In this document: positions 24,444-61,390 of the stretch, one piece after another | Position numbering within the stretch: the stretch's first letter is position 1 | How the letters are laid out: every line of letters begins with the position of its first letter | The notes under the pieces: generated by a model | What the model saw: the letters and a program-made list of their open reading frames with translations, nothing else | Databases searched by the model: none | What the model was told of the DNA's origin: nothing | Position numbers and translations under genes: made by a program | Source of the DNA: Bacteroidales bacterium | Lineage (GTDB): Bacteria; Bacteroidota; Bacteroidia; Bacteroidales; GCA-2748055 | NCBI GenBank assembly: GCA_021738565.1 | Contig: JAIPBT010000005.1 | Coordinates: 21,508 to 85,507 of the forward strand | Length of the DNA stretch: 64,000 nt | Direction: 5' to 3'

Positions 24444-24596
24444 AGCGACCCCCTGATTATGAGTTTCAAATTGGGAATTCCACAGGTTTACACAAGTTTG
24501 TATCCCTTTGTACCAGTTTAAGTTAAAGTTGATTAAATGTAAAATATTACATGGGTTTACATTGATTTGTTGAAATACTGGCGGGGAAACTGGCAC
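24444..24596. repeat. Junction J1: 21-nt tRNA-Met core copy (24444-24464) + B arm (24537-24596)
   Basis: agcgaccccctgattatgagt is identical to 61340-61360 inside the tRNA gene. The B arm atgtaaaatattacatgggtttacattgatttgttgaaatactggcggggaaactggcac is about 80% identical to 49728-49787 and 59751-59810. Confidence 0.75.
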
Positions 24597-24692
24597 TAAA
24601 ATTTCGAAAATCTTTGTTGATAGATATTGAAGAGATAATTAATCGTAGATTTGGAATATAGTCTGAACAAACAGCTTCCTAAACATGGGAAG
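24575..24692 (+). promoter_or_regulatory. Conserved upstream element R1 (homolog R2 at 44763-44882), includes a Bacteroidetes-type -7 box
   Basis: About 115 nt align with 44763-44882 at roughly 75% identity by eye. TAGATTTG (24646-24653) matches the TAnnTTTG -7 consensus. An inverted repeat (24650-24657 / 24675-24682) sits at the same place as a perfect 8-bp one in R2. Confidence 0.4.
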
Positions 24693-24709
24693 TTTACAAA
24701 TTATTAAAG

Positions 24710-26167
24710 ATGAGAAATACTAATCTAATTTTACCAGCTCTTCTTCTAATATTTTTAGTCCCTATACAAATATTATCTGCTCAATTTATTTTTACTGGTC
24801 CCGACCGTGTAAGAACCCCACTGAAGGTGGAAATGAAAATGATTGGTACCATTATTCCCCGAAGCACTAACGAAGTTTTATCATCCCGGTTAACGGTAGG
24901 GTGTGAAACCCTGGATCGCGATCACACGGTATGGGATAATTACAAAGATTATTTACCTCCACTTGGAATTAAAAAAATAAGGTTACAGGCTGGTTGGGCT
25001 AAGTGCGAAAGGGTTCCGGGAGTTTATGATTGGCAGTGGCTCGATGAAATTATCGATTTTGCCGTGGCCAACAATATTGAACCATGGGTACAAACTTCAT
25101 ACGGAAATCCAATCTATAACGGCGGCGGCGGGGTGAACCTTTTAAATAGCTTAATGACTTCAGAAGAAGCATGGTCTGCATGGGACCGATGGGTAGAAGC
25201 GCTGGTAACCCGTTACAAAGACCGTGTAATTGAGTGGGAGATCTGGAATGAACCCGATCATCCAATGCAAAGCATTACTCCTGAAACAACAGCACAGTTG
25301 AACATCCGCACGGCAGAAATTATCAAACGGGTTCAACCTGAAGCAAAAATAGCAGGACTCGCTTACACATCAAATAGCGATAAAGTTTATCTCGACAAAT
25401 TTTTGAAAGTAATTGCTGATTCCAGGAAGCTTGATTTATTTGATTGGATTAGCTACCACAGCTATACCATACGACCCGAAGATGCCTATACTGAAAAAAG
25501 GGTACTCGGGTTAAGGTCAGTAGTTGAAAAGTATTCAAAAGATATTCTTCTTCGGCAGGGAGAGAATGGTGCTCCTTCAACGTATATTCCAAGTTTTGCG
25601 CTCTCTGAATACTATTGGACCGAATATACACAGGCGAAATACAACATGCGCAGGATGCTGGGAGACCTTGGGCACGACATAGAAACATCGGTATTCACAA
25701 TTATCGATATTTATTACAATTGGGGCGACAGGGCTGTTCTCAATACCAAAGGATTAATCCAGTCGGATATTACTATGGCTGCCATCCGTCCAAAAGTAGC
25801 ATATTATGCCATTCAAAACCTCGCTGCCATCTTCGATAACCACATGATGCTCAATCCAGACTTTAAATACTCCACCACAAACCGGGAATCGTTGTCTGTT
25901 TATGGGTATCAGCATCAGCCAACCCAAACTCCACTGGTAGCGCTTTGGCTGGATGGAGAAAATGTTACCAATTCATTTAAAACAACCATGATAAACATCA
26001 CTGTTGAAAATGGTATCTTTAAAGAACCGGTCTGGGTAGATTTAATGACAGGCGACATTTACGAAATTCCAAAATCACAAAGGAGCAAATCCAGGGACAA
26101 ATACACCTTCAACATTCCGTTGTATGATTCACCTGTTTTACTTACGGAACAATCATTTATTAGGTAA
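24710..26167 (+). CDS. Exported clan GH-A glycoside hydrolase (GH39/GH5-like)
   Basis: 485 aa with a signal peptide. GCETLDRD, IRLQAGWAKCE and EWEIWNEPDH (NEP acid/base motif) indicate a TIM-barrel glycosidase. Confidence 0.6.
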   Translation: MRNTNLILPALLLIFLVPIQILSAQFIFTGPDRVRTPLKVEMKMIGTIIPRSTNEVLSSRLTVGCETLDRDHTVWDNYKDYLPPLGIKKIRLQAGWAKCERVPGVYDWQWLDEIIDFAVANNIEPWVQTSYGNPIYNGGGGVNLLNSLMTSEEAWSAWDRWVEALVTRYKDRVIEWEIWNEPDHPMQSITPETTAQLNIRTAEIIKRVQPEAKIAGLAYTSNSDKVYLDKFLKVIADSRKLDLFDWISYHSYTIRPEDAYTEKRVLGLRSVVEKYSKDILLRQGENGAPSTYIPSFALSEYYWTEYTQAKYNMRRMLGDLGHDIETSVFTIIDIYYNWGDRAVLNTKGLIQSDITMAAIRPKVAYYAIQNLAAIFDNHMMLNPDFKYSTTNRESLSVYGYQHQPTQTPLVALWLDGENVTNSFKTTMINITVENGIFKEPVWVDLMTGDIYEIPKSQRSKSRDKYTFNIPLYDSPVLLTEQSFIR

Positions 26168-26268
26168 TTCAATCCTTGCGAGATTGGCCTGGATTTAACA
26201 GGTGGAGGTTACGGTGTACAGTATATCCGGAATTTGCAAACAGGAAAGATCCACATGCCCGATACTTT

Positions 26269-27570
26269 TTATTCCTTAACAGCAAGTAATTGACCCATAA
26301 CAGCCACACTTTCTTCATATATCTTTTCAACTTTATCCATGTTGAATTGAAGTTTTGCCATTGCCCTATCGTAATCTTTCCAAATATCCAGAAGCTTGTC
26401 GGCTATTTGTTTTCCACTCGTCTCATCAATTTCAAAAGTCCAGTCGTCAAAACCCAAATCATAATACATTTGGCCTTTTATCGTGTCTTCAGGTTGACGT
26501 AAATAGAACATCGGTGTGCCGTTAGCAGCTGCGATGATAGGTGAATGGCACTCAAAACTCAATACTGTATGGGCTTTAGAATAAATCGAAGCGGCCTCGT
26601 CCGGAAGCCAATATCCTCGTTTGACAACAAATGGTTTAACATCTGCCGGGAGTGGGTCGATCAATAATTCATCCATAATATCCACCTGATAGGTCATTTC
26701 GGGACATACCAATACTTTATTACCCGTTTCGCGCACCCAGGCGATCATGGCTTCTCGCATTTTGGCATGATCAATTTCCTTGTATTTTTCGTTGGTCTTC
26801 TCCACAAAGCTTATTCGTTCATCACTCCAATTATTTTTGTTTTGGTAGATCTTGTGATAAGGAGTATATCGCAAACGGGGAATTACACAAATAAACTTTC
26901 GTTCTTCCAATCCATTGTCTCCTCTGAATTTGTTTGCCTTTTCATCATCACGGATGTGCATATAAAAAGTGGCATCGGGAGTAAACCGGACATGTCCTCC
27001 TTCAATGCCAGCCTGTCTTAAGTGACTTATTGAATCCGTTTCACGTGTAAAAATAAACGAGGCCTTTTTCAAAATATTCAAATGGTACGCTCCCGGATGT
27101 TGTAAGGTGGTTCCAAAAACACCAAAAGCTTTAGAGGTATGTTTCATCCAACATGCAAGGTTATCGGCTCCAACCAGCAAAGGGCCTGAGCCATGAATCA
27201 TCATGTCGGATTCTTCAAAGGCCTTCAAAATTTCAGGATTATCCGGATCATTCTCTGTATTTACGCTGCTATGAAGGATTTTAACTTTAGGAAAATTCTT
27301 GTTTAATAGCTTCTCAACCTCCTCTCCATTACTACGTTTCCAAAGGATAACTTTTGATTCAGGAAGAAAAGTTTCCAGAATGTGGAGTAAGCCAGGCGTG
27401 TGTCCAATATCCCCGATATTTACATCCTGCCAGCCCGAGACTACAAGAATTGTCATTCCTTTACCACTCCTATTACGATTTCCGCTTCTTCCACAAGAAA
27501 TTAATAGTTCACTAATTAGCAGGCCAGCAGTACTTAAACCAATTGTTTGTAATAATTTTCTTCTGTTCAT
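26269..27570 (-). CDS. Polysaccharide pyruvyl-transferase-family protein with Tat/lipoprotein export signal
   Basis: 433 aa. N-terminus MNRRKLLQTIGLSTAGLLISELLISC has a twin-Arg-like motif plus a lipobox Cys. ILVVSGWQDVNIGDIGHTPGLL resembles the N-terminal motif of the PS_pyruv_trans fold. The family call is from memory. Confidence 0.5.
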   Translation of the reverse strand: MNRRKLLQTIGLSTAGLLISELLISCGRSGNRNRSGKGMTILVVSGWQDVNIGDIGHTPGLLHILETFLPESKVILWKRSNGEEVEKLLNKNFPKVKILHSSVNTENDPDNPEILKAFEESDMMIHGSGPLLVGADNLACWMKHTSKAFGVFGTTLQHPGAYHLNILKKASFIFTRETDSISHLRQAGIEGGHVRFTPDATFYMHIRDDEKANKFRGDNGLEERKFICVIPRLRYTPYHKIYQNKNNWSDERISFVEKTNEKYKEIDHAKMREAMIAWVRETGNKVLVCPEMTYQVDIMDELLIDPLPADVKPFVVKRGYWLPDEAASIYSKAHTVLSFECHSPIIAAANGTPMFYLRQPEDTIKGQMYYDLGFDDWTFEIDETSGKQIADKLLDIWKDYDRAMAKLQFNMDKVEKIYEESVAVMGQLLAVKE

Positions 27571-27920
27571 CTCAATTTAAAAATTTGTGCTATCAGGGGA
27601 AATATTCTCATTTAAGCCAGCCCTTTTCTGAGAATAATCAGTTCAGATCGATGTTGCATTTGTTTATCACTATTATCCGAATAATTGATCAAGTCGATGA
27701 TTTTTCTTCTGCATTGCCCACAAACAAATTCTATTCACATTATCGGGATGATCATTTTTGAGAAAATTGTAAAACATTATCATGAAGCAGGATAACTGTT
27801 AAAATCAATTGTAAAAATATGCAAATTGTATGTAAATAAAAAGCAGCTATAGATTCAATCTTAGAGGCCTTTGTCGCATCACAGTGTGCGGTCGGATACA
27901 TCCGTTACGGAGGGAAGTCG

Positions 27921-28025: not shown

Positions 28026-28075
28026 GTTATGTTTGTATATTACGCTCTGCCGAGTAAACCTGAAATTCGTAAATC

Positions 28076-34230: not shown

Positions 34231-34324
34231 GCTGGGTAGGGTAATGTTTTAATTTACACTTTAGACAAAAACTTACATTTTGAAATTCCTGAATATTACA
34301 TCAAAATATCATAACAATTAGTTT

Positions 34325-49460: not shown

Positions 49461-49545
49461 GCGGGAAGTATGGAACATTCAGGGATTGGAAAACTCGGTT
49501 AAACTGACAACCTAATAACAAAGTAAGGTGATCAGTTTGACCATA

Positions 49546-49787: not shown

Positions 49788-49908
49788 CTTATACTTCTAC
49801 AGAAAATATGTTCGATCTTTGAGATAATACATGTATTTTGTTTAATTCATGTATTTCGCTACATGTAATTAAAATTATTCATGTATCTTTGTGTTGTATA
49901 TTTAAATC

Positions 49909-51036
49909 ATGATAGTACGCAAACTACAATCTTATATCGCAGTCAACCTGAAGCCTGGATTTGCAGTTGGACTATTCGGCGCGAGGAGAACAGGGAAAAC
50001 AGTCCTGATGAATCAACTGGCAGAAAAGATATCAGGGAGGCCTCTTATTATATCTGGCGAAGATTTTGATGTACAGGAATTATTCTCAAGCCAAAAACTA
50101 AATCTTTTTAAGTCTGCTACTTCAGGATACACGCACCTTTTCATTGATGAAGCACAAAAAATCCCAAACATAGGGAACAATCTAAAATTGATTGTCGACA
50201 ACCTCCCGGAACTTGCTGTCTTTTTTACCGGGTCCTCATCATTCGAATTATATAATCAAATTGGGGAACCTTTAACCGGAAGGAGTTTATTCCTGAATCT
50301 TTTTGGCCTTTCGCAGGAAGAACTGGATGAAGATTTCCTTGATGCAAGAAAAGCACTGGAAGAAAAACTCATTTACGGTTTGTATCCTCAGGTTTATCTG
50401 GAACAAGAAATAAAACAAAAGGAAGAAATACTGAATAGTATAAAGAATGGCTACTTGCTCAAAGATATTCTTGAATTTGATCTGCAAAAAGATTCTGTAT
50501 TCATATTAAATCTTTTAAGATTAATAGCTTTCCAGATAGGTCATGACATTTCATATTCTGAATTAGCCGGCAGACTTCAGGTTAACGTTAGGACGGTGCA
50601 ACGATATCTAAATATACTGGAAAAGATGTTCATCATTTTTTCCTTGCCAGGATTTAGCAGGAACATGCGAAATGAGTTCACGAAAACTCCCCGGTATTAC
50701 TTTTGGGACAATGGAATACGAAATGCTTTGATAGCCAACTTAAACCCCATAAATATCAGAAATGACTCCGGACAACTTTGGGAAAACTACTGTATATCTG
50801 AACGGCAAAAATTCCTTTCATTTAACCGGATTACTGCAAACAGGTTTTTCTGGAGGACTTATACTCAGAAAGAAATCGATTATATTGAGGAACGGGAAGG
50901 CTCCCTGTACGCCTATGAAATGAAATACTCAGGAAAGTCATCAAAAGTGCCAGCTGTATTCATGCAAAACTATCCCGATTCAGAGTTCCTTGAGATCAAT
51001 AGAGATAACTTCCTGGACTTTCTAAAATCAAAATAG
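49909..51036 (+). CDS. AAA+ ATPase with DUF4143-type C-terminal domain
   Basis: 375 aa. Walker A GARRTGKT. Walker B HLFIDEAQ. C-terminal FFWRTYTQKEIDYIEE resembles the DUF4143 nuclease-like fold. TATCTTTG (49884-49891) is a -7 box 18 nt upstream. Confidence 0.8.
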   Translation: MIVRKLQSYIAVNLKPGFAVGLFGARRTGKTVLMNQLAEKISGRPLIISGEDFDVQELFSSQKLNLFKSATSGYTHLFIDEAQKIPNIGNNLKLIVDNLPELAVFFTGSSSFELYNQIGEPLTGRSLFLNLFGLSQEELDEDFLDARKALEEKLIYGLYPQVYLEQEIKQKEEILNSIKNGYLLKDILEFDLQKDSVFILNLLRLIAFQIGHDISYSELAGRLQVNVRTVQRYLNILEKMFIIFSLPGFSRNMRNEFTKTPRYYFWDNGIRNALIANLNPINIRNDSGQLWENYCISERQKFLSFNRITANRFFWRTYTQKEIDYIEEREGSLYAYEMKYSGKSSKVPAVFMQNYPDSEFLEINRDNFLDFLKSK

Positions 51037-51069
51037 GAATCCCTTAATTTGGTGTCAACTCCCACTACC

Positions 51070-51175
51070 CTCTCCCCCAAAATCCTGGCGCCAGACTGGC
51101 ACCATAGAGAAAACCAACCAGCGACCCCCCCGGTTATTAGTCAGTACATTATATTTAGGGCCTGCTGAAAAACAG
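51070..51175. repeat. Junction J3: F arm (51070-51114) + degenerate tRNA core (51116-51143) + degenerate B arm (51146-51175)
   Basis: ctctcccccaaaatcctggcgccagactggcaccatagagaaaacc, then aaccagcgacccccccggttattagtcag (tRNA: aaccagcgaccccctgattatgagtcag), then tacattatattt...cctgctgaaaaacag. Confidence 0.6.
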
Positions 51176-51219
51176 AAATAATCTTATAATAAGCATCATA
51201 GGCAGATTATTTATTTATC

Positions 51220-51266
51220 AAATGCAAGGTTTTCAGTCAATATCTGAAAAAACCTTGCATTTTTCG
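51220..51266 (+). terminator. Perfect 14-bp stem-loop followed by a T run
   Basis: aaatgcaaggtttt (51220-51233), 15-nt loop, aaaaccttgcattt (51249-51262), then tt. Confidence 0.4.
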
Positions 51267-51433
51267 AATAATATTTCTTTAGTCTGTAGCACATCATCTA
51301 CCGCGTTGGCTGCGGCTCGCAGTATTGGTATACAGCTTCGCCTTGCCGGCCTTGTAGCTGATGCACTACAGACTTTTTCAGTAAGCCCTATTTAATTCCA
51401 TTATCATATATTTTTGTATACATTTGGAAATAT

Positions 51434-52594
51434 ATGTGGGTTGAATTTCAGGATAAAATGAGACCTTTTCGGGTGTTTTCAGTGCAGGATATTAAGAACG
51501 CAATTTCCATCCATGAATCTGATGAACCTGGTCCGCTGGCAGGAAAAAGGATATATTTTGAAATTGCGCAATCGCTGGTATGCGTTTAACGATGCGGAAA
51601 ACAGTGAAAATATGGAATGACTGGCCGCCAACGTGATCTATTCTCCTTCTTACATTAGTTTACATTCTGCTCTTTCCTGGTATAACCTGATACCGAAAAT
51701 GATAGCCGCAACTACCTCTGATATTACCCGGAAGACTAACAAATTTTCAACCCCTTTGGGATCTATTGATTATCACAGGATAAAACCGGAATTGTTTTGT
51801 TTTGGATATGTACTTGAAGATGTGGATCCCTTCATGGGGTGAACGCGGAAAAAGCAGGAAGATCATGGTAGCCTCCCCTCAGAAAGCACTTCTGGATTTC
51901 TTCTATATCAATAATTATTACAACACTGAGAAAGATATTAAAGATCTGAGGCTGAACGAAACAGAATTGCCAAAAATCATCAACGCCGAGTTTTATCGGG
52001 GGAACCAACCTGCGGATACTTCATCAGATACAACGTTTCAGCGAGAATCTTGACTTTGACTGCTTCAATCTATCCAGGGAAGAATTCATGAATCCTACCG
52101 AAATGGTTTTAGACGGGTTAAGGCAAGAAGGTATTAATGTTGAGGTTGATGACAAGGAAAAGGATCAAAAGCTGGTTGCATTAAGAAGAAATATCGTTTC
52201 CCCTGAATTACCTTTTGATTTGGGCTTCACTGGTCATCGGGAAAAGAAACTCCTGATCAAAATCGAATGCGAACCACATAATTATGAATACGAACCCGAA
52301 AAGCCTATTATACAAAAGTTCAATGTATTCATCCAGATTTTCGCTCCTTCATCTTCTATACTTCTTTCTATGAAATCCGGAGATGTGCTCGAAAGAGGAA
52401 AGGGCCGGGATTTCTATGACTTCATTTTTTTGTCGGGAATAACAGATACGGATTTCGGCTATCTGGAATATAAATTCGGTATTACAAATTTCACTGACCT
52501 GTACGACAGGATTCTGGAATCCTGCCAGGAAATAGATTTCAAACTAAAGTCACGTGACTTTAAAAAACTGGTATTCGACCAGGCAGAAAGCTGA
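51434..52594 (+). pseudogene. Decayed AbiE toxin-antitoxin locus (AbiEi antitoxin fused by deletion to AbiEii nucleotidyltransferase)
   Basis: MWVEFQDKMRPFRVFSVQDIK, then a frameshift to FPSMNLMNLVRWQEKGYILKLRNRWYAF...ENME. An in-frame TGA follows at 51618-51620, then LAANVIYSPSYISLHSALSWYNLIP and further shifts near 51840. From about 52003 the frame reads GGTNLRILHQIQRFSENLDFD, the AbiEii motif, without its N-terminus. Confidence 0.7.
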
Positions 52595-52665
52595 AAAATG
52601 CTTTTCTTTAAGGAGTGCATTCAGCAAAAATATAAGTGTAATCGCAAACAGTAAAATCCTAATCC

Positions 52666-53682
52666 GTGCAAAAAAAATTAAAGATTGATAAGAATTTCAA
52701 ACCATGCCTGACTGATGATGTGGATGAGGTCTATGCGAACGGTATTTTTAAGTTCAATATTTCCAAAATGATTGTGTATCTCCATAACAACCCGGATGTG
52801 TTTGCCCCCTAGACCGTTGTTGTAAAAGAGATATATTCCAAATCTTCTCATATCAATGAAAATCACCTGGATTCTGTAGATGTTTCAAAGCCAATAATAC
52901 TTGCTGAAATCTCGCCGGATCAATACAACCTGATTGATGGTCATCACAGGGCCGAGAAGGCTGTTCGTTCAGGATTGAAAGAGATAAAAGCATATCGGCT
53001 AACTGCCTTCCAGCATATTCAATTCCTGACCCACAAGGAAGGTTATGAGAAGTACGTTGATTACTGGAATGATAAACTCAAGCAGCAGGTAGGAACTTTC
53101 GCAAAGGATACACTATACCACATGCATATAGTATTAATGGGATTTGAGCCGTATATCTGGAGAACGGCCCTGGTTAAACCTGAAATGCCCCTGGCAATTT
53201 TTCACAGGCTCATTCAACAAGTAATGGGATGGCAAGACTTGCACCTTCATCACTTTATTAAGGGGGATACGTTTTATGTTCCCAGACTGGATGATGGCGG
53301 GAGGGGTACGATGAAGCAAGTGGATTACAGTGATCTGTCCATAAAAGATATCCTGACCAAACAACATGAACGCATAATCTACGAATATGATTTCGGGGAT
53401 GGATGGCAGCATGAAATCTGGCTGGATAAGATCGTTACTACCGGAAAGAAAGACCACCCTATATGTCTGAACGGAATGATGCGTTGTCCCCCGGAAGATT
53501 CTGGCGGTGTTTGGGGCTATATGAATGTGCTGGAAAAATTAACCAAGCTGGATGAAGACGAACGAAAGTTATTCCTGGAAGATAATTTTAAGGACGACTT
53601 TAATCCGGATTATTTCGATAAGCATGAAATCAATCAACAATTGAAACAATGGAAAGCAGTATGGCTAAACAAATGGAAATAA
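52666..53682 (+). pseudogene. ParB-like nuclease domain fused to PRiA4_ORF3 (pRiA4b ORF-3-like) domain, interrupted by an in-frame TAG
   Basis: One frame reads from a possible GTG at 52666: VQKKLKIDKNFKPCLTDDVDEVYANGIFKFNISKMIVYLHNNPDVFAP. TAG follows at 52810-52812. Then TVVVKEIY...KPIILAEISPDQYNLIDGHHRAEKAVRSGLKEIKAY (DGHHR ParB/sulfiredoxin motif), then IIYEYDFGDGWQHEIWL (PRiA4_ORF3). The ORF track only calls 52975..53682, from a TTG. Confidence 0.6.
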
Positions 53683-55949
53683 AAAGAGTACCGTATTACA
53701 GGAAACCAAGCGATTTGACAGTTGAAGAATGGCAGTCAGCCCTGAGGAAACAGTACGCCCTGGAGCAGAAATTCAAAGTCAGGAATGTTGGATCCGAGCC
53801 CCTTTATTCAGACTATGAGGTTTATAATCCCGATACCAACAAAACCTACAAAGTATCCATCAGGGATAACATCAGTAGTTTTAATTACTGTTCATGCCCT
53901 GATTTCAGGGTAAACACTTTAGGTACATGCAAACACGTTGAATTTGTCCTTTTGAGCAAACTCCGTTTTAAGAAGTACCAAAAACTTATAACTAAATCAC
54001 AAAAGAACACATATTCTTCCCTGAGTATATACTATGGCAGGGACCGACTGGTCCGGCTCAAAAAAGCAGATCACATCGACAAGTATCCGCGAGAGGAAGA
54101 ATTTTTTGACGATGAGGGATTTCTGCAAACCGGAATGATAACCGAACTGGATACATTTATCCAGGAAGCCGCCCCGATGGACCCGGCATTTCGTATTTAT
54201 CCGGACGTTTTTGAGTTTATCAAAGGACACAAGGAAGCAAAGTCAAGACAAGAAAGGCTGAAGGAGATATTCCCGGACGGAACCAATAGCAAGATCTTTG
54301 ATGATCTAGTCCGCACCAGGCTCTACCCCTACCAGAAAGAAGGGGTGATGGGAATGCTCAGAGCTGGCAGGGTATTGCTTGCCGATGACATGGGGCTTGG
54401 GAAGACCGTTCAGGCTATTGCTGCCGTTGAAGTATTTGCTCGTTTTTTTGGCGTATCAAGGGTACTGATCCTTTGCCCTACTTCTCTGAAATACCAGTGG
54501 AAAAGCGAGATCATGAAATTCACAGGCAGGGAAGCCTGTATCGTGGAAGGTCTGATACATAAAAGAAAAGACCTTTACAGGCAAGACAGTTTTTACAAGA
54601 TCATCAGCTATGGTGTGGTACGCAACGATCTTCACCTTATTGAAGAATTGAAAACCGGGCTTATTATTGTGGACGAGGCTCAACGGATCAAGAACTGGAA
54701 AACGCAAACCGCCCAAGTAGTGAAAAAGATCCGCACTGAATATGCTATCGTCACAACGGGGACTCCACTTGAAAATCGCATTGATGAACTGCATTCAATA
54801 GTGGAATTCCTCGACATGTATAAACTGGGGCCTCTGTTTCGTTTCCTGCACAATCACCAGGTTTTGGATGAGTACGGTAAAATGAGCGGCTACAGGAATC
54901 TTCGAACAATCAAAAAGACCCTTGAGGACATTCTGATCAGAAGAACAAAGAAAGAGATCCAGGACCAACTTCCCGGAAGAATTGATAAAAATTTCTTCGT
55001 TGAAATGACCCGTGAACAGTCCGCTGAACACGAAGACTATTATAATACCGTGTCCCGGCTGGCCAGTAAGTGGATTCAATTAGGATTCCTTGAAGAGGAG
55101 GAACGGCAACTTCTGATGACATGTCTTAATTGCATGCGTATGGTGGCTGATTCGACTTATATCCTCGATCCCAAAACCAACCATGGAAACAAAGTTCCCG
55201 AAGTTACAAGCCTTATCAGGGATCTTATGGAATACAAAGGGAATAAGCTGGTCATTTTCAGCCAGTGGAAAAGGATGTTTGAACTGCTTATCCGGGAATT
55301 CAGAAAAATGGATCTTCAGTTTGTATACCTGAACGGGGATGTGCCAGCCATTCAGCGAAAAAAGATCATTGAGCAATTTCGTGAGGATAAGAACTTTCGT
55401 GTATTCCTTTCAACCGATGCCGGGGGAGTCGGGGTAAACCTGCAACAGGCAAACATCCTGATAAACCTCGATCTGCCCTGGAATCCGGCAGTGCTTGAAC
55501 AACGGATCGGGAGGATATACCGGCTGGGACAAAAAAAGAAGATCCAGGTATTCAATTTCGTATCAGCATATTCAATTGAACATCGCATTCTGCATCTGCT
55601 TGAATTCAAGAAAACTGTATTCGCCGGAGTACTGGAAGAGCAAGGAGAGGACCAGGTCATGATTGAGGGATTCATGAAATCGGTTCAGAACCTGCTCAAC
55701 GTGGATCTTCGCCGAGCAGGTGATATTTTGCCAAAATACATTCAGGAAAGAGAAGAAGTTTTACAGGTAGCTGAAGAAAATGCAGTCCTTGAAAAAGATC
55801 ATCCAGAAAATCCTGTATCCTATGAAAGAGATATAACCCCGCAAAAAAACGGATCTTCGGGAAATGTATTGCCGATGCCAAAAACCGGATTTCAAAGCAG
55901 AATCAGGAAATGGTTCAAATCTGTTTTGTCATTATTTAAGCATTCCTGA
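53649..55949 (+). CDS. SNF2-family helicase/ATPase with N-terminal SWIM zinc finger
   Basis: 766 aa. SWIM: CSCPDFRVNTLGTCKHVEF. Helicase motifs: LLADDMGLGKTVQ (I), IVDEAQRIKN (II), TGTPLENR (III), LSTDAGGVGVNLQ (V), LPWNPAVLEQRIGRIYRLGQ (VI). Three candidate ATGs (53649, 53661, 53673) all overlap the end of the upstream gene (stop at 53680-53682). Confidence 0.9.
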   Translation: MESSMAKQMEIKRVPYYRKPSDLTVEEWQSALRKQYALEQKFKVRNVGSEPLYSDYEVYNPDTNKTYKVSIRDNISSFNYCSCPDFRVNTLGTCKHVEFVLLSKLRFKKYQKLITKSQKNTYSSLSIYYGRDRLVRLKKADHIDKYPREEEFFDDEGFLQTGMITELDTFIQEAAPMDPAFRIYPDVFEFIKGHKEAKSRQERLKEIFPDGTNSKIFDDLVRTRLYPYQKEGVMGMLRAGRVLLADDMGLGKTVQAIAAVEVFARFFGVSRVLILCPTSLKYQWKSEIMKFTGREACIVEGLIHKRKDLYRQDSFYKIISYGVVRNDLHLIEELKTGLIIVDEAQRIKNWKTQTAQVVKKIRTEYAIVTTGTPLENRIDELHSIVEFLDMYKLGPLFRFLHNHQVLDEYGKMSGYRNLRTIKKTLEDILIRRTKKEIQDQLPGRIDKNFFVEMTREQSAEHEDYYNTVSRLASKWIQLGFLEEEERQLLMTCLNCMRMVADSTYILDPKTNHGNKVPEVTSLIRDLMEYKGNKLVIFSQWKRMFELLIREFRKMDLQFVYLNGDVPAIQRKKIIEQFREDKNFRVFLSTDAGGVGVNLQQANILINLDLPWNPAVLEQRIGRIYRLGQKKKIQVFNFVSAYSIEHRILHLLEFKKTVFAGVLEEQGEDQVMIEGFMKSVQNLLNVDLRRAGDILPKYIQEREEVLQVAEENAVLEKDHPENPVSYERDITPQKNGSSGNVLPMPKTGFQSRIRKWFKSVLSLFKHS

Positions 55950-56132
55950 CAGGTTATAGTGTATCACTACTGGTCTGGTTTTCCGAAAAAGTCCATGAAT
56001 AACTTCCCGGGGCCGACACAAGATCCAGTCATATCGAACAGATCCAAAGTTTCCCTGACTGTACCAGTCAATACCATATTGCCTGTACCACGCATTTATC
56101 GTGGTTTGACAACCAACCGTCCTTTTCAAACA

Positions 56133-56253
56133 AAAAACCAACCAGTCGGATCTTACTCCAAATGGTTGGTTGTCAGCTGTTGCCCCCCTTGATTATGAGT
56201 TTCTTTTATTCGATGGATTACATAATATATTCTCGCAATTTCCCGGAAAACTT
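56133..56253. repeat. Junction J4 (degenerate): F-like end, tRNA core remnant (56183-56200), degenerate B arm (56217-56253)
   Basis: aaaaaccaaccag...ctccaaat...cccccc-ttgattatgagt, then attacataatatatt...cccggaaaactt. aaccaaccag/ctggttggtt also forms a hairpin followed by T6 on the minus strand. Confidence 0.45.
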
Positions 56254-56366
56254 ATAGATAGAACGGTTATACCCTTGAAAAATGGTGTCCAAAAAGCAGA
56301 GTATCTTGACTTTCAGTGAGTTTCTTCTTACTTTTATTCTCCAGACAGTTATCAATCCTGCTGCAA

Positions 56367-57767
56367 ATGGCACTAAACCTTTCTTTCGATGATAAATTCC
56401 TGGAGCAGGAGTATCGTGCTACTTATTCGCAGAATAACAGAAATGTAATAAAGCTGGGCATCATCCTTTCCTATGCAGGCTGGATATTCATGACCCTGAT
56501 GGTTCTGCTGTTTACACCTGAGAATTTCTTTCGAGCAAGCCTGCTGGTAACGCTGATCCTATTTCCCCTGTTTGCTTTAACACTCTATATCGTTAATAAA
56601 GAGAACCTGCTGAAGTACTACCAGGGGTCCGCATCAGTAGCAAATGCAATGGCGGCGCTTACCTGGCTGTACATCTCATATTTCCTGATAGAGGACTTGC
56701 TTATCCTCATTTCTTTCTTCACCATGATTGAAGTATTCTGCTTCCTGGTGCTTAAAATCCGATTTCCAATAGCGGTGCTCACGGTTTCCGGTTACATGAT
56801 CATTTATTCAATCTTATTCTTACTTTTTCCATTTGCCTCCAAAGAAACAACACTATTTTTATTTCTTGGAGGATGGGTGAATGTCTTCGTACTGGTCTTT
56901 ATCGGGTATTTCGCGGATCAGACTGAGCGCAGGTTGTTTATCAGCAAGAAAACCACTGCATCCCAGAAAAAGAAACTCCAGGAAGAGTATGAAACAATCA
57001 ACCGTCAAAACAAGATTATCAACGAGAGCATTGCCTATGCCAGGAATATCCAGGATTCACAACTGCCATCCGATCAATATGTGAAGGAGGTGTTAAAGGA
57101 TTGCTTTTTCTTCTACAAACCCCTGCATATTGTCAGTGGTGATTTTTACTGGGTGAAAGAGACGCAAAAGCAGCGCATCTGGATTGCTGCAGATTGCACT
57201 GGTCACGGGGTGCCAGGAGCTTTCATGAGCATGCTTGCAACATCACTCCTGAACGAAGTGGTAAAGGATGATGAACTAAACACCGCCTCTACCCTGCTAG
57301 ATCAACTAAAGCTAAAACTGGTCACGACACTTAAGGACCATTCCAAAAATACCGAGATAAAAGACGGGATGGACCTGGCCCTGTGCATTATGGACAGGTC
57401 CCGTAAAAAGCTGGAATATGCCGGCGCAAACAATCCACTCTACCGGGTTCGTGACGGAGAATTGATAGAATATCCTGCCGACAGGATGCCAATTGGAGAA
57501 CATCACAATCCGGACCAGAAGTTCTCAAAACAGGAGGTTGAAATACAGGAAGGAGATATGATCTACACCTTCTCTGACGGTTATATCGATCAGTTCGGTG
57601 GTGAAAATGGTAAAAAATTTCTCAAAAAGCGATTTAGAAAGATGCTCTGCGAAATCAGCAACAAAGCTACTGAAGAGCAACATGTGATTCTGGAAAAAAC
57701 CATCATTGACTGGATGGGTAAATATGAGCAGATCGATGACATTTTGGTCATTGGCGTTCGTATATAA
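56367..57767 (+). CDS. Membrane-anchored PP2C/SpoIIE-family serine phosphatase
   Basis: The ORF is listed from a GTG at 56316. A likely start is MALNLSFDDKF at 56367. About 6 TM helices, then SGDFYWV...IWIAADCTGHGVPGAFMSM...DGMDLALC...FSDGYIDQFGG, which are SpoIIE motifs. Confidence 0.8.
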   Translation: MALNLSFDDKFLEQEYRATYSQNNRNVIKLGIILSYAGWIFMTLMVLLFTPENFFRASLLVTLILFPLFALTLYIVNKENLLKYYQGSASVANAMAALTWLYISYFLIEDLLILISFFTMIEVFCFLVLKIRFPIAVLTVSGYMIIYSILFLLFPFASKETTLFLFLGGWVNVFVLVFIGYFADQTERRLFISKKTTASQKKKLQEEYETINRQNKIINESIAYARNIQDSQLPSDQYVKEVLKDCFFFYKPLHIVSGDFYWVKETQKQRIWIAADCTGHGVPGAFMSMLATSLLNEVVKDDELNTASTLLDQLKLKLVTTLKDHSKNTEIKDGMDLALCIMDRSRKKLEYAGANNPLYRVRDGELIEYPADRMPIGEHHNPDQKFSKQEVEIQEGDMIYTFSDGYIDQFGGENGKKFLKKRFRKMLCEISNKATEEQHVILEKTIIDWMGKYEQIDDILVIGVRI

Positions 57768-57984
57768 AATCTTTGCAATGGCAACAAATCTTTCCTTACG
57801 GATTTTTCGATAATCTTTTATACGATTAGTGAAAGGTTGCCGGAGTTAATCCAATGGTTTCAAAAGCAGTTTGTCCAATACCTTTTACCATATATATTAT
57901 CCATTCTTCCCAACTATTTGTCTCGCGCACGTTCTGAAGAAGTCTGTAATATTCAGATTTGTTTTTTGAACAATATTTCTTTAG

Positions 57985-58540
57985 TTTAATTTAAAAACCT
58001 ACCGTCTTTGACGGTGGTAATGTTCTTTTGGGTTTGCCTATATTTGTAATATGAGTAAGTATAAGAAGCTTTCGCATGTTATATATAAATGTGATTACCA
58101 CATTGTATGGGTTCCCAAGTATCGATTTCGGATATTGACAGGACAGGTTAAAGCGCTTATAGAGGAAGACATAAATATGTTGTGTGAATAGAAGAAATGT
58201 GAGGTTAAAGAGCTGAGTGTTCAAATTGATCACATTCACCTGGTAGTGTCGGTACCACCCCGGGTATCCATATCTGAATTGATGGGGATATTGAAAGGGA
58301 AACTTGCAATAAAGTTGTTCAGGAGCTATCCCAAGATGAAGCAAAAGCCTTATTGGGGCAATCATTTCTGGGCGCGCGGATACTTTGTCAGTACAGTTGG
58401 GATAGATGAAGACGTAATAAAGCGATACGTCAAGCATCAGGAGAAAGAAGAAAAACTTGCAGAAGATCAACAACATAAGTTTGATTTTTAAAGCCCCCTA
58501 TGGGGGCAACTCAAAGCCACCTTCTAAGAAGGTGGATATT
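57985..58540 (+). mobile_element. IS200/IS605-family element (approximate ends)
   Basis: Subterminal hairpins: accgtctttgacggt (58001-58015) on the left; gccccctatgggggc (58493-58507) and ccaccttctaagaaggtgg (58517-58535) on the right. It contains only a Y1 transposase gene. Confidence 0.7.
58051..58491 (+). pseudogene. tnpA: IS200-type Y1 transposase TnpA with in-frame TAG at codon 47
   Basis: My translation is MSKYKKLSHVIYKCDYHIVWVPKYRFRILTGQVKALIEEDINMLCE*KKCEVKELSVQIDHIHLVVSVPP...YWGNHFWARGYFVSTVG. The HUH motif and catalytic Tyr context are present. The stop at 58189-58191 sits where IS200 TnpA proteins have Trp (LCEWK), so TGG to TAG. The track shows only the distal 81 aa. Confidence 0.8.
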
Positions 58541-58884
58541 TACTGGAATATGTACTTCAGAAGGCAGGGGTAATATTTCAGTATGATTCACGAATTACTT
58601 CCATTAGTTATTTAAGCCGCAGTATTGAAGTGGAGGATAAAACCTATGTTTACCGCAAAATTAAGGGCGAGATAATTGCCAACACAAAGGGGATTTCCAG
58701 GCAAAGTAATCAGGTTAACATCGCCACCGCTGAAAGGGCTTTCCTGGATATTTTATACCTGAATACGAACTATTATTTTGATAATCTGAATCCGCTGAAT
58801 AAGACAAGAGTATATGAACTCCTTCCCATTTATATGTCAAAAGCTTTGGCCGACAGAGTAAAGAAAATTTTTCCTGATGATTGA
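58540..58884 (+). pseudogene. AbiEi-like antitoxin C-terminal fragment, 5' part removed at the IS200 boundary
   Basis: The open frame reads LLEYVLQKAGVIFQYDSRITSISYLSRSIEVEDKTYVYRKIKGEII...IATAERAFLDILYLN. No plausible start exists; the track uses a GTG at 58630. Confidence 0.45.
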
Positions 58885-59006
58885 TTTAAGCAAACGCAAA
58901 TTTCTCCTGATTCAAATCCTGAAAGACATATATTCCGATATTGAACTCGTGAATAGTTTAGGATTCTGTATTTTTTGTATCTTTAAGGTAACCAAATCAT
59001 CTTAAC

Positions 59007-59669
59007 ATGAAATACTGTCTGATCCTTGTGTCAGTAATTATATTTACATCCACTGTTTGTGCTCAGACAATGGCTGTAAAAGGGAAACTGACTGCCTATA
59101 ACTCCTTTCCTGTTATGAATGTGGAGATCTCTTCTAAAAAGGCCAAAGCCACTACCATGTCTGACTCCCTGGGTTACTTTTCCATTGTCTGCCTGGAGAA
59201 GGACGTCGTTCAGATCGAACCCAAAGGCTTTCAACCGGAAAATATAAATGTGAATAATGAAACAGATTTCCTGAAAATCAACCTTATTTTTATCGATACT
59301 AAAAAGAACCGGGAACTGGCTATTAACTCAGGATATCTCACCGAGATTGATCTCAATTATGCCACAGCCAATCTGGCTGAGGAGAACATTGATTACTGCA
59401 AATACACAAACATGCACTCATTGCTCAGAGCCACACTGGGTCCCAGCATTAGTGTTTCCAATTCCGGAGTGATCACCCACAGGGATGGAATCACCTCCTT
59501 TTCTGGCATGTCCCCACCACTGATCATTGTGGATGGTCAAAAAGAAACTTCCATTGACTGGATCAGGCCATGTATTGTCAGGTCCATAAAAGTGCTAAAA
59601 GGCAGCGATGCCCGCATATACGGAACAAGAGGTGACAATGATGTGGTCGTAATTACTACAAAACAATAA
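59007..59669 (+). CDS. Stand-alone carboxypeptidase-regulatory-like + TonB-plug-like protein
   Basis: 220 aa with a signal peptide. VKGKLTAYNSFPVMNVEISS...GYFSIVC (CarbopepD_reg-like). PPLIIVDGQKET...IKVLKGSDARIYGTRGDNDVVVITTK (plug-like). No barrel follows. Confidence 0.6.
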   Translation: MKYCLILVSVIIFTSTVCAQTMAVKGKLTAYNSFPVMNVEISSKKAKATTMSDSLGYFSIVCLEKDVVQIEPKGFQPENINVNNETDFLKINLIFIDTKKNRELAINSGYLTEIDLNYATANLAEENIDYCKYTNMHSLLRATLGPSISVSNSGVITHRDGITSFSGMSPPLIIVDGQKETSIDWIRPCIVRSIKVLKGSDARIYGTRGDNDVVVITTKQ

Positions 59670-59750
59670 CAGGAGATCTATATTTACATTTTGTCCTGCC
59701 TTTCTTTCTTACTTCTTTCTTATTGAAAAAGTTTTGTGACTGTTCATTTT

Positions 59751-59810
59751 ATGTAAAATATTACACAGGTTTTCACGGATTTACAGGAATACTGGCGAAA
59801 AAACTGGCAA
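59751..59810. repeat. B arm copy 3 (orphan, no adjacent tRNA core)
   Basis: atgtaaaatattacacaggttttcacggatttacaggaatactggcgaaaaaactggcaa, 204 nt upstream of the Fic gene. Confidence 0.7.
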
Positions 59811-60013
59811 TTTTTACCAGGTTATTATACATCGGTTAAGGTCCAAATCAGGACAAGCATTAATTCATTGTCTTTTTAATGTCTGGGGGGGGGGATAAAT
59901 CATATTTTAAGGCCAAAATTCTTATAAACATTAAAATGTGTAAATTTTAATGTTTGTTTGTGAGATTGTTGTAATTTTGATGAAAGAATATAAATGAAAT
60001 TAATTATTGACTC

Positions 60014-61144
60014 ATGACAGAATTACTTTACTCAATAAATCCAAACAGAAATGAGCCCTGGAATAAGCTTCCGCCCTTGCCAATTAGAGAGGAACTGTAC
60101 GATACAACAGAGATATTAAGAAAACTGGGAGATGCTAAAGCTGCATTAGGAAAACTATATGGGCGTAGCGCAGTAATTCCAAATCAAGGATTATTAATAA
60201 ATACAATTAGTCTGCAAGAAGCGAAAATTTCAAGTGAAATCGAAAATATATTTACAACCGATGATGAGTTGTATAAAGCATTTAGTGATAAAAACACTGA
60301 ATCAAACAGAGCCTCAAAGGAGGTATTAAGATATAGAGAAGCCCTCTGGTCTGGATACAATTACTTACGAAATACGAAAAAGTTTGATCAGCAATATTTC
60401 ATTAAAGTATTTCAGGAATTTAAGCAATCAAAAGATACGATTAGGCCTGGTTTTGTACAATTAACAATTAAGCAAGGTGGAACAGGACCAGATGCAGGTC
60501 AGGTAATCTATACCCCACCTAGAAATCAGGCAGTAATCCAGGATCGTTTGGAAAACCTTGTAGAATTTGTAAATGATGATGAACAATACAATTTGGATTT
60601 TCTGATTAAGATGGCTATTGCCCATTTTCAATTTGAAGCAATTCATCCATTCAGAGATGGTAATGGCAGAACAGGAAGAATCTTCAATATTAACTATTTA
60701 ACAAATAAGGGGCTGTTAGATGTTCCGATATTATTTCTAAGCAGATATATACTGGATCATAAAAACGATTACTATTCCGGATTGAATGGAGTTTCCCAGA
60801 GAGGTGATTGGAGGAACTGGTTTTTATTTATGTTCAGAGCTATTGAGAGTACTTCAAACCAAACGTTCAACAAGATTAATGATATAGTCGCCTCAAAAGA
60901 GTCTATTCTGGAACACATAAAGAAAGAAGATCCAAAACTCAGAAATCCGGAAGATTTAGTAGGAGCAATATTTACTCAGCCATTAACAAAAGTAAAACAC
61001 CTTACAGACCAAAAAATCTATGCTGAAAATACAGCAAGAGATTATTTAAATAAATTGTGCGATTTTCAAGTACTTGAAAAGAAAGAGATGGGAGGACATC
61101 ATTACTACCTTAACCTTGAATTGTATCGAATTCTGGCTGAATAA
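60014..61144 (+). CDS. Fic-family protein (AMPylase/adenylyltransferase type) with Fic_N and C-terminal wHTH
   Basis: 376 aa. The canonical motif HPFRDGNGRTGR is present (AIHPFRDGNGRTGRIFNINY). Confidence 0.9.
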   Translation: MTELLYSINPNRNEPWNKLPPLPIREELYDTTEILRKLGDAKAALGKLYGRSAVIPNQGLLINTISLQEAKISSEIENIFTTDDELYKAFSDKNTESNRASKEVLRYREALWSGYNYLRNTKKFDQQYFIKVFQEFKQSKDTIRPGFVQLTIKQGGTGPDAGQVIYTPPRNQAVIQDRLENLVEFVNDDEQYNLDFLIKMAIAHFQFEAIHPFRDGNGRTGRIFNINYLTNKGLLDVPILFLSRYILDHKNDYYSGLNGVSQRGDWRNWFLFMFRAIESTSNQTFNKINDIVASKESILEHIKKEDPKLRNPEDLVGAIFTQPLTKVKHLTDQKIYAENTARDYLNKLCDFQVLEKKEMGGHHYYLNLELYRILAE

Positions 61145-61178
61145 TATCTTCATAAATGGCATTTCCCTCCAACCTTTT

Positions 61179-61215
61179 CCTTCAAATCCTGGCAACTAAG
61201 CGGCACCAAAGAAAA
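61179..61215. repeat. F arm copy next to the intact tRNA
   Basis: ccttcaaatcctggcaactaagcggcaccaaagaaaa is about 80% identical to the F arms at 49546 and 51070. It begins 35 nt after the Fic stop. Confidence 0.65.
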
Positions 61216-61230
61216 TATCTAATACAATGA

Positions 61231-61310
61231 ACAGAGTGTGAGGTTGAGAGCGAGAGTGAAGAAAAAAACAGAGCCGTGTTCATCGCTCTCGCTCTTCACA
61301 CTCACTCTGT
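61231..61310 (-). terminator. Long imperfect inverted repeat immediately 3' of tRNA-Met
   Basis: Arms acagagtgtgaggttgagagcgagagt (61231-61257) and cgctctcgctcttcacactcactctgt (61284-61310). The outer 8 bp and inner gagcgagag pair. A and T runs lie adjacent. Confidence 0.4.
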
Positions 61311-61316
61311 TTTTTG

Positions 61317-61390
61317 TGGGCCCAGCTGGGCTCGAACCAGCGACCCCCTGATTATGAGTCAGGTGCTCTGACCAGCTGAGCTATGGGCCC
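61317..61390 (-). tRNA. tRNA with anticodon CAT (elongator Met, or Ile2 if lysidine-modified)
   Basis: The reverse complement is GGGCCCATAGCTCAGCTGGTCAGAGCACCTGACTCATAATCAGGGGGTCGCTGGTTCGAGCCCAGCTGGGCCCA. It folds by hand into a cloverleaf: 7-bp acceptor, GCTC/GAGC D stem, CCTGA/TCAGG anticodon stem, CTCATAA loop, GCTGG/CCAGC T stem, TTCGAGC loop. The G1-C72 pair argues against an initiator. CCA is not encoded. Confidence 0.9.

Follow-up and report, generated by a model that had tools for sequence, protein, structure and literature searches.

Part of a single tRNA gene recurs, always in the same orientation, through a stretch of Bacteroidales DNA, and the question is what process assembled this arrangement. 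The stretch analysed here, referred to as the window, comprises 64,000 nucleotides of contig JAIPBT010000005.1 (assembly GCA_021738565.1), and the 37 kb in question lie beside its tRNA-Met(CAT) gene. We read them, with a probability of about 0.68, as a site-specific accretion array of non-autonomous cassettes, each bounded by a B arm on the left and an F arm on the right, which would probably be moved in trans by the integrase and excisionase (Xis) of sibling elements. A first-pass annotation of the window had interpreted its joints, consisting of an F arm, a tRNA-derived core and a B arm, as the junctions resembling element attachment sites (attP) that tandem accretion would leave. This interpretation is strengthened by the complete form of the joint in about 45 other loci, with varied cargo and block-wise differences between them.

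The tRNA-Met(CAT) anchor, core copies and arms

One tRNA gene is called in the window, tRNA-Met(CAT) at 61316-61390 on the minus strand (ARAGORN; Rfam tRNA, 72.9 bits). Initiator tRNAs typically have three G-C pairs in the anticodon stem; since these are missing here, the gene was treated as elongator-type. tRNA-Ile2 is what we take to be the alternative identity for a gene with this anticodon. The 27-nt segment from the anticodon loop to the T loop, referred to as the core, has an exact copy at 49592-49618, as the first-pass annotation stated. The leftmost copy, described there as a perfect 21-nt match at 24444-24464, is real, with 20 of 21 nt matching (24442-24464). Shuffled sequences are expected to contain 0 matches of either kind, which answers the objection that the tRNA-matching segments might be no longer than chance. 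Degenerate copies were also found where they had been reported, at 51116-51143 and 56183-56200, the latter being overlapped by a match to the B-arm model (56185-56221, E = 0.0016). All copies have the orientation of the tRNA gene and break off, as had been noticed, at one position of the anticodon loop, ending ...GATTATGAGT. A further, strongly degenerate core at about 51366-51382, at the head of an AbiE-type unit, is a weak call made by alignment only. A 10-mer at 48947 that had been counted among the copies was discarded, being at chance level (about 0.1 expected on 64 kb, by arithmetic) and having no supporting flanks. Repeats of part of the tRNA gene in one orientation stand at the unit boundaries, with the intact gene at one end, and an equal tRNA-anchored arrangement is present in L016, L021 and L064 (L-numbers denote related loci from scans of a genome collection and of metagenomes).

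The arms were located with profile models built from related loci, 70 nt long for F and 187 positions long for B, the latter taking in the last 18 nt of the core. The F motif has exactly three good matches in the window (49558, 51083 and 61187; 0.31 expected), which places it, as proposed originally, to the left of the 49.6-kb and 51.1-kb cores and of the real tRNA; the corresponding model matches are 49542-49593, 51052-51118 and 61157-61219. Exact matches to the B motif occur at 24537, 49728 and 59751 (0.01 expected), which upholds two clear copies and the orphan copy of the first-pass annotation; a degenerate copy placed at 51146 has no match to the B model, and another at 56217 is reduced to the first ~20 nt of the arm. 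The B model is matched over its full length at 49601-49787, over the distal 55% at 24492-24596, over the distal 40% at 59738-59809 and partially at 56185-56221. The spaced CTGGC direct repeats described for both arms are likewise genuine: CTGGC-N5-9-CTGGCA has six matches in the window against 0.04 expected, and four of the six lie in arms. F and B arms are confined to the core junctions, in one orientation, and occur nowhere else in the 64 kb. The junctions and the tRNA end of the array comprise the following features.

24444-24596, plus strand: leftmost junction, a 21-nt core (24444-24464) and a shortened B variant (24492-24596; B model, 56.2 bits).
49542-49787, plus strand: best-preserved junction, with F arm 49542-49593 (F model, 43.4 bits), exact core 49592-49618 and full 187-nt B arm 49601-49787 (B model, 175.8 bits).
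51052-51143, plus strand: junction in which F arm 51052-51118 (F model, 36.9 bits) is fused directly to the degenerate core 51116-51143 (sequence).
51144-51365, plus strand: remnant of ~220 nt with two hairpins, not a B arm (no B-model match; sequence).
51366-51382, plus strand: degenerate core heading the AbiE-type unit (MAFFT alignment with L003 and L020, with ...CCCTGATTATGAGT there, ~65 nt before the AbiEi start).
56136-56221, plus strand: eroded junction, with terminator hairpin 56136-56171, degenerate tRNA 3' half and core to 56200, and ~20 nt of B arm (sequence; B model positions 3-39, E = 0.0016).
59738-59809, plus strand: distal 40% of a B arm, with a CACTGGTT box and CTGGCG-N6-CTGGC; proximal part and core deleted (B model positions 115-186, 67.8 bits; sequence).
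61157-61219, plus strand: F arm of unit 6, TCCTGGC-N6-CGGCACCA with a ttccctccaacc box before it (F model, 40.4 bits, E = 6.5e-11; pattern match).
61232-61309, minus strand: tRNA terminator, a long hairpin with a T-run, presumably supplied by the last unit (sequence; related junctions carry a terminator hairpin at the equal place).
61316-61390, minus strand: intact tRNA-Met(CAT), anchor of the array, derived from the target site (attB), its 3' half from the anticodon loop on being the repeated core (ARAGORN, Rfam).
61426-61547, minus strand: tRNA 5' half in a second, displaced copy that stops at ...CTGACTC of the anticodon loop, its D loop split by an 86-nt insert (sequence; pattern match 61425-61443).

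The 49.6-kb and 51.1-kb junctions are deletion variants with a common ~65-nt deletion, which joins F to the T loop and removes the terminator together with the tRNA 3' end, so that an element with such an attP would no longer be able to restore the tRNA. The terminator hairpin of the 56.1-kb junction is also found beside the real tRNA in L064, and the nearest relative of the leftmost B variant is at 4065-4160 of L003. There is no recognisable tRNA 3' end to the left of the leftmost core (24444), and a candidate decayed F arm at 24336-24365 was rejected (E = 0.3).

Just left of the leftmost core (24270-24380) are direct repeats, CCTGGTCAC...CTTGGTTACCTTGGTTACCA, and a weak F-like stretch, which may represent a decayed arm of another unit from a time when the array extended further leftwards. 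At the opposite end, the displaced 5' half sits between the native upstream region and the intact tRNA, from which it is separated by 35 nt with a AATATTTG box; its 86-nt insert is hairpin-rich. This copy is not present in L016, L021, L044 or L064, the real-tRNA loci in which the upstream region was read, and might be a scar left when some element entered from the 5' side, bringing a promoter and a 5' half.

The same junction in other genomes and metagenomes

Scanning with the B motif returned 22 stretches from the genome collection and 27 matches from metagenomes. The junction structure is present in 17 of the former, which come from 12 Bacteroidales/Bacteroidota metagenome-assembled genomes (MAGs), and in 26 of the latter, a total of about 45 loci outside the window. 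In the orientation of the window the complete junction consists of a ~70-nt F arm (consensus ...ttcccaccaacct...TCCTGGCAACAAACTGGCACCAAAGAAAAAA), a rho-independent terminator, the whole tRNA 3' half as far as the anticodon loop, and a ~170-nt B arm, which ends ATGTAAAATATTACACTGGTTT...CTGGCGAAAAAACTGGCAC and beyond which similarity stops abruptly. More than 40 related junctions share the break point after GATTATGAGT, whether the arm beyond it is a B arm or an integrase-side arm of the kind described below. Wherever the end of the array is present (L016, L021, L064), it reaches the real tRNA-Met. Junctions with no F arm on their left (L009, L051 and the integrase element of L034) are expected at the far ends of arrays, which indicates that F does not belong natively to the tRNA flank but arrives with the elements. 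No plasmid match to the junction was found, and a plasmid origin was rejected on these grounds. The B motif matched three IMG/VR contigs, two of which are giant-virus MAGs; these are motif matches only.

The 31 distinct B arms have a mean column identity of 89%, a value partly forced by the search pattern, and blocks outside that pattern are conserved equally. In four homologous cassette pairs the B arms are 0.77-0.86 identical, as against 0.47-0.69 at the 4-fold degenerate sites of the adjoining gene. By this comparison the B arm evolves more slowly than synonymous sites and behaves as a constrained DNA site. A structured-RNA reading of the arm was ruled out: RNAalifold finds no conserved secondary structure in the 31 sequences (-4.6 kcal/mol, with a covariation term of -0.19), and no Rfam family matches.

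Several related junctions carry insertions of their own. A ~60-nt module, tagacttgccgttaagaa - hairpin - ttttaggcaagggcttgactgcagggc, in some cases present in tandem, separates the T arm of tRNA remnants from their anticodon-stem part in L008 (2527-2640) and L017 (3654-3860) and also in L009, L014, L020 and L021, which suggests a separate small insertion or an element targeting the T loop. In L011 an IS4-family element (4307-5625; DUF4372 and DDE_Tnp_1) interrupts the B arm just before a ATGTAAAATATTACA box, with ~14 nt of arm on both sides. This insertion sequence (IS) recurs in L064 and L065 at 91-93% identity and has a more distant relative at 40577-41752 of the window, and the truncated B arm at 59738 begins at nearly the arm position that is split in L011. 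L013 (reverse-complemented) has a PDC-S01-type ATPase gene within the B arm at 5344-6816, between arm positions 1-60 and 33-187, an arrangement that duplicates ~28 nt of the arm; it may reflect a second insertion point in the arm or a deletion between two units.

Cassette cargo varies in blocks

Twenty complete B-to-F units were delimited, of which 19 are 1.0-6.0 kb long, with a median of ~1.9 kb; most contain a single gene and measure 1-2 kb. Between like arms the cargo is unrelated, and it is found on either strand: SoFic and other Fic proteins, AbiEi/AbiEii, the PDC-S01 ATPase, PNPOx, an ankyrin/metallo-beta-lactamase protein, an esterase, a TlpA-like redoxin, an EEP nuclease, a glycoside hydrolase (GH) pair of GH97 and GH63-like type, and GH2. 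Differing cargo between the same arms, for which the first-pass annotation had suggested a search in relatives, is thus present in these units, and it is seen again in L044. In that locus the flank containing a PQQ_2 gene, which is 73% identical to the window's, is followed by tRNA-Met, a terminator, an F arm and a different island, which carries a DNA methylase and a NERD helicase.

The variation follows the junctions, as accretion of whole units would require. L021 and L008 have a two-gene unit in common (93% identity); after its F arm, L021 has the real tRNA and L008 a core, a B arm and a further unit, so that the two loci differ by a whole unit. The SoFic cassette has differing neighbours in L009, L014, L017, L067 and L073, as does a second Fic cassette in L005, L013, L014, L058, L060, L063 and L066. 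The AbiE and PRiA4 segments of the window are 74-87% identical to cassettes in L003, L020, L059 and L064. An empty tRNA-Met site was looked for via the PQQ_2 flank in L040, L042 and L044 and was not found in these relatives: L040, from the genome collection, covers only the far side of PQQ_2; the closest, L042 (85%), has efflux genes right after PQQ_2 and no tRNA; and L044, which alone retains the tRNA beside PQQ_2, has the site occupied by the other island.

An integrase family at the same core

The first-pass annotation saw no recombinase among the open reading frames (ORFs) of the window, and none was detected with Pfam on all large ORFs or with phmmer, tblastn and hmmsearch using the related integrase family. 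A recombinase does lie in or beside the arrays in sibling elements of other genomes. L002 and L027 encode, beside the junction, a 402-aa tyrosine recombinase with Phage_integrase and Phage_int_SAM_5 domains. It belongs to a family of 334 proteins (E <= 1e-40), nearly all of 402 aa, whose gene ends 150-280 nt to the right of the tRNA-Met core in 20 of 22 loci. Upstream of the integrase gene, all 12 loci with gene calls have a gene for a 68-70-aa HTH_17 protein, a family that includes excisionases. The best phage match to the integrase in tblastn is 26-30% identical, and a phage origin was rejected.

The arm on the integrase side of the core carries CACTGGTT boxes at +26, +36, +76 and +86 from the core. 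Of the eight such arms tested, seven also have a CTGGC pair located at +104/+116 (at +116/+128 in L036). The eight arms contain 18 CACTGGTT-like boxes, compared with 0.55 in shuffles. An equal module is present in the cassette B arm, with CACTGGTT at +122 and CTGGCG-N6-CTGGC at +150/+162, and a CTGGC pair in one and the same 11-bp register is found in the F arms of cassettes as well as in those of integrase elements. Repeated boxes in both arms, distant from the core, in an 11-12 bp register and at fixed offsets, give the site the organisation of a lambda-type attP. In L027 a cassette directly adjoins the integrase element.

One metagenome contig displays both ends of an integrase element together. 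The 15.2-kb contig L083 corresponds to the integrated element of L082, circularly permuted and 99.9% identical, so that the cargo end (F, terminator, tRNA 3' half, core) adjoins the integrase end (arm, int) of the same element; this joint is consistent with the attP of an excised circle or with a tandem dimer. Between L082 and L083, near-perfect identity extends leftwards from the core, takes in the tRNA 3' half and the terminator, and ends in the F arm at the first CTGGC repeat. In the other integrase elements the tRNA-proximal (right) end lies beyond the 10-kb flanks, so that L083 is the only locus to show such an end.

In an AlphaFold (AF2) model with a mean confidence (pLDDT) of 81.5 the integrase matches the Tn1549, lambda, Xer and IntI recombinases, and full-length lambda Int aligns with it. 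The model has an extra N-terminal three-stranded sheet and helix ahead of the SAM-like core-binding domain, and this N-terminal domain may bind the arm boxes.

One integrase element occurs in several samples (L076, L078, L080, L081), with 100% identical protein and 99.7-100% identical DNA. The identical block begins ~160 nt left of the core, and left of it the genes differ (GFO/MFS in L076 and L081; an NHL protein and IS3 in L078), which suggests recent movement or rearrangement of the element. In L037 (PMIJ01000181.1) a pseudogenised member of the integrase family lies beside a glycan-use cluster (a 572-aa protein, MFS, GH130 and a hybrid two-component regulator) that is 33-65% identical to 2034-13796 of the window, the first three proteins at 56-65%. 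No attachment (att) core was found beside this pseudogene, and the locus was set aside.

Proposed mechanism and alternative explanations

The scheme that best accommodates these results is one in which elements with a lambda-type attP have integrated successively into the anticodon loop of tRNA-Met. Their standard attP consists of the F arm, the terminator, a copy of the tRNA 3' half and the B arm; as it carries the 3' half and the terminator, integration at the anticodon loop would rebuild a working gene, each event reconstituting the tRNA from the element's own sequences. New units would enter at the tRNA, and in this order of insertion each would displace its predecessors, leaving a joint of F, tRNA 3' half and B between neighbours. 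The units with B and F arms belong to a widespread Bacteroidales family of 1-6 kb with no recombinase of their own, carrying mostly defence or toxin-antitoxin genes and also glycoside hydrolases, esterases and redoxins. The 402-aa integrase and the Xis-like HTH_17 protein of the larger siblings would bind the boxes and act in trans, excising and integrating the cassettes. Since cassette and sibling arms have boxes in common, trans action appears the most likely mechanism. The suggestion in the first-pass annotation that these are trans-mobilised cassettes gains from the presence of an xis-int module at the same core, from the common boxes and from the conservation of the B arm.

Several findings weigh against this scheme. 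No cassette circle, empty site, excision or integration event was observed, and the 64-kb window contains no integrase or Xis gene, or remnant of one. The integrase was found together with B arms in only one of 12 MAGs (by exact peptide words, an insensitive search) and in none of the 27 metagenome loci obtained with the B motif. The boxes of the B arm lie 46 nt further from the core than those on the integrase side, a shift that leaves use by the same protein plausible but unproven, and the N-terminal ~100 residues of the integrase match no Pfam arm-binding family. Conservation of the arms could also stem from gene conversion between copies, not from selection for mobility. In the window itself truncation has affected most arms and frameshifts several cargo genes, and the leftmost unit is four times the size of any other (24.9 kb, compared with 1.0-6.0 kb for the 19 other complete units).

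A more far-reaching version of the trans-mobilisation scheme, which we put forward tentatively and would rate at somewhat under even odds, is that the Bacteroidales possess an integron-like, mechanistically distinct form of gene capture, in which non-autonomous, mostly single-gene cassettes with defence, toxin-antitoxin and glycan-use genes are shuffled in trans by a helper-borne lambda-type integrase and Xis, with several arm lineages using one core. In such a system the mobility equipment of a cassette would be limited to the ~70-nt F arm, the tRNA 3' half with its terminator and the ~170-nt B arm, and the array would grow at the anticodon loop. If cassettes are indeed moved in trans, single defence, toxin-antitoxin and carbohydrate-use genes could be gained, lost and reordered in modular fashion at one chromosomal address, an integron-like outcome reached in environmental Bacteroidales by way of a tRNA target and att sites of the lambda type. 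Integrase and Xis, together with their boxes, form a testable system that might serve as a site-specific integration tool for Bacteroidales, and the 187-nt B arm together with the F arm offers a search handle for arrays and candidate defence genes.

The competitor that survives best, and which we nevertheless consider unlikely, is that the units are pure relics: elements once autonomous that have lost their integrase and become cis-mobilisable elements (CIMEs) by decay, their arms being alike through youth or gene conversion. Accretion followed by decay is a documented route to CIMEs (PMC5704250), and erosion is evident in the window, with its truncated B arms, its frameshifted AbiE and IS200 genes and the deletion common to two junctions. 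Integrase pseudogenes do occur in related loci (L029, L035 and L037), whereas neither the window nor the ~45 loci with B arms gave a clear integrase remnant; L002 has the intact integrase of its neighbouring element, and L007 one weak match of 23.7 bits. Nor were relaxase or conjugation remnants found within the cassettes, or conjugation genes in any locus examined. Mere loss of an integrase from the siblings also fits poorly with the B arm, a conserved 187-nt module of its own which, despite the boxes in common, is distinct in sequence from the integrase-side arm and stops abruptly at CTGGCAC with unrelated cargo directly after. The units are mostly single-gene and 1-2 kb long, and arm divergence is below synonymous divergence. 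If the units were relics after all, the locus would still be a clean and well-resolved case of tRNA accretion and decay.

Much less probable is an origin by segmental duplication and homologous recombination, in which the tRNA flank would have been duplicated and gene-converted time and again, producing the joints with no site-specific recombinase involved. Local copying is suggested by the deletion common to the 49.6-kb and 51.1-kb junctions, and the near-perfect tract from core to F arm in L082 and L083 is longer than the overlap region of a tyrosine recombinase. Copying of this kind would not explain a break point in the anticodon loop that is constant to the base in dozens of genomes and with three arm types, the dedicated xis-int module at that very point, or a tRNA regenerated each time, and the cargo between joints is unrelated, not duplicated. 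That the joints are generic intergenic repeats of the REP (repetitive extragenic palindromic) or MITE (miniature inverted-repeat transposable element) kind, or a structured non-coding RNA resembling tRNA-Met, may practically be discounted, for although the arms are short, non-coding and repeated, and other REP-like GC-rich repeats exist in the window (49.24-49.48 and 63.1-63.6 kb), the arms are not scattered but tied to the core junctions in one orientation, with neither the conserved RNA structure nor the Rfam or plasmid matches that such repeats might have.

Comparison with known systems

The closest concepts are CIMEs and site-specific accretion; full-text literature searches found no description of this Bacteroidales cassette family. 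CIMEs and tandem accretion have been described for ICESt1/ICESt3 of Streptococcus thermophilus and for other tandems made up of ICEs (integrative and conjugative elements) and IMEs (integrative and mobilisable elements) (PMC5704250). As in CIMEs, the units are flanked by att sites, lack integration and transfer genes, form tandems at a target gene's 3' part, with chimeric att joints, and are expected to depend for mobility on the integrase of a related element. The PDC-S01 and SoFic units of the window (49.6-51.1 and 59.7-61.3 kb), with B and F arms, one gene each and no integration or transfer genes, have just this form. The units differ from CIMEs in constituting a family of their own in many genomes, with a conserved 187-nt arm and mostly single-gene units of 1-6 kb, rather than isolated products of the decay of an ICE next to them. 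Their host is Bacteroidales and their target the anticodon loop of tRNA-Met.

Tycheposons, which form genomic-island arrays at tRNAs of Prochlorococcus (bioRxiv 10.1101/2020.12.28.424599), resemble the array in that successive tRNA integrations push older elements inward, partial tRNA copies remain between units, the cargo has adaptive or defensive roles, and decayed remnants are frequent. They carry their own integrase and usually a replication module, whereas the units of the window carry neither, and the integrase family and arms described here are unrelated to theirs as far as tested.

The array is also reminiscent of integrons, with mostly single-gene, recombinase-less cassettes that a tyrosine recombinase encoded elsewhere would move, and with defence or toxin-antitoxin cargo. 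Unlike integrons, it has no folded sites of the attC type (RNAalifold, 31 B arms), its att sites being instead of the lambda type, in which arm repeats accompany a core derived from the tRNA; either strand may carry the cargo, with no common-promoter logic, and the integrase is not at a fixed platform, there being none in the window.

An anticodon-loop class of tRNA-targeting integrases was reportedly distinguished by Williams in 2002 (Nucleic Acids Res); it is like the present system in its crossover in the anticodon loop and in an attP whose tRNA 3' half restores the gene, but comprises autonomous prophages and islands, whereas most occupants of the site described here are non-autonomous. 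Another Bacteroidota element flanked by direct repeats in tRNA-Met(CAT) is that of the ICECleSHZ29 type in Flavobacteriales, a 75-kb conjugative, autonomous element with its own integrase and a 17-bp repeat (PMC12561888); that repeat is at the extreme 3' end of the tRNA, so that sublocation, scale and repeat all differ. REP and MITE repeats, finally, are dispersed copies with no fixed partner, in contrast to the arms of the window.

Units and cargo of the window

The units between the junctions, with their genes, are listed below.

24597-49541, plus strand: unit 1, 24.9 kb, doubtful as one unit (Pfam; size outlier).
49788-51051, plus strand: cargo of unit 2, a single gene (49909-51036) for an AAA_14/DUF4143 ATPase, candidate defence protein PDC-S01 (Pfam; PADLOC PDC-S01, 450 bits, full length).
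51383-56135, plus strand: unit 4, belonging to a second lineage of arms ('type A', lacking CTGGC arms; Pfam, PADLOC; both ends homologous to units in L003, L020 and L064).
51434-52594: AbiEi/AbiEii remnants of unit 4 (Pfam, PADLOC).
52975-53682: PRiA4_ORF3 gene of unit 4 (Pfam).
53649-55949: SNF2 helicase with SWIM finger of unit 4 (Pfam).
56222-59737, plus strand: unit 5, right end lost (Pfam; blastn to AbiE cassettes of L003 and L016, 81-83% identity).
56316-57767: PP2C/SpoIIE phosphatase of unit 5 (Pfam).
58051-58491: frameshifted IS200 of unit 5 (Pfam).
58630-59005: AbiEi/AbiEii fragments of unit 5 (Pfam).
59007-59669: CarbopepD/Plug fragment of unit 5 (Pfam).
59810-61156, plus strand: cargo of unit 6, a single gene (60014-61144) for a SoFic-type Fic protein (Pfam Fic_N, Fic, SoFic-like_C; PADLOC SoFic, 336 bits).

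The first-pass list of units was correct in giving one unit a lone ATPase gene and another a lone Fic gene; it misplaced the boundaries near 51 kb and treated as one unit a 25-kb block that may not be one, and the array itself mixes at least two arm lineages. A "ParB" label in what is now unit 4 is unsupported, as only PRiA4_ORF3 matches there. The homologues of unit 4 in L003, L020 and L064 start right at the core with a different short arm and end in a distinctive terminator (aaccaacc...ggttggtt), with no CTGGC repeats; the window retains this type of terminator at 56136-56171 and a very degenerate core at ~51366-51382. As this arm type differs from the CTGGC arms, at least two arm types have used one core within one array.

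Unit 1 contains, by Pfam, genes of GH39-like, pyruvyl transferase, DUF5916/CBM9, PMT_2, BNR, nucleoside hydrolase, GFO/IDH, GH38C-like and GH9 type and a helix-turn-helix (HTH) gene, and further an IS4 element (40577-41752), a winged-HTH remnant and a GC-rich repeat at 49.0-49.5 kb. It may be several units whose joints were lost, or trapped chromosomal DNA. Its content is in character, since genuine B-to-F units elsewhere carry carbohydrate-active enzymes (GH97 and GH63-like in L040, GH2 in L064).

With its mostly eroded joints, the array of the window is probably largely fossil, and much of it is likely immobile now; only the PDC-S01 ATPase unit and the SoFic unit look like near-complete cassettes. 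The interest of the locus accordingly lies more in the family-wide picture of dedicated arms, common boxes and defence cargo than in this decayed instance.

Some further features of the window are recorded here. The IS200/Y1 transposase of unit 5, beside the AbiEi/AbiEii fragments, is split by its frameshift into ORFs of 46 and 81 aa. GC-rich, repeat-like stretches at 49240-49480, 61555-61585 and 63117-63560 (e.g. ccttggcgaaggtgg) stand amid AT-rich DNA, with spurious 'SPLHVERGEGVR'-type ORFs; these are probably repeats of REP type that have no relation to the att arms. Two PQQ_2 beta-propeller genes bracket the region, one at 19006-20352, 4 kb left of the first core, and the other at 61726-63132, to the right of the tRNA. 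The right-hand gene has varied neighbourhoods in relatives, and in L040 a B-GH97-GH63-F unit lies on its N-terminal side.

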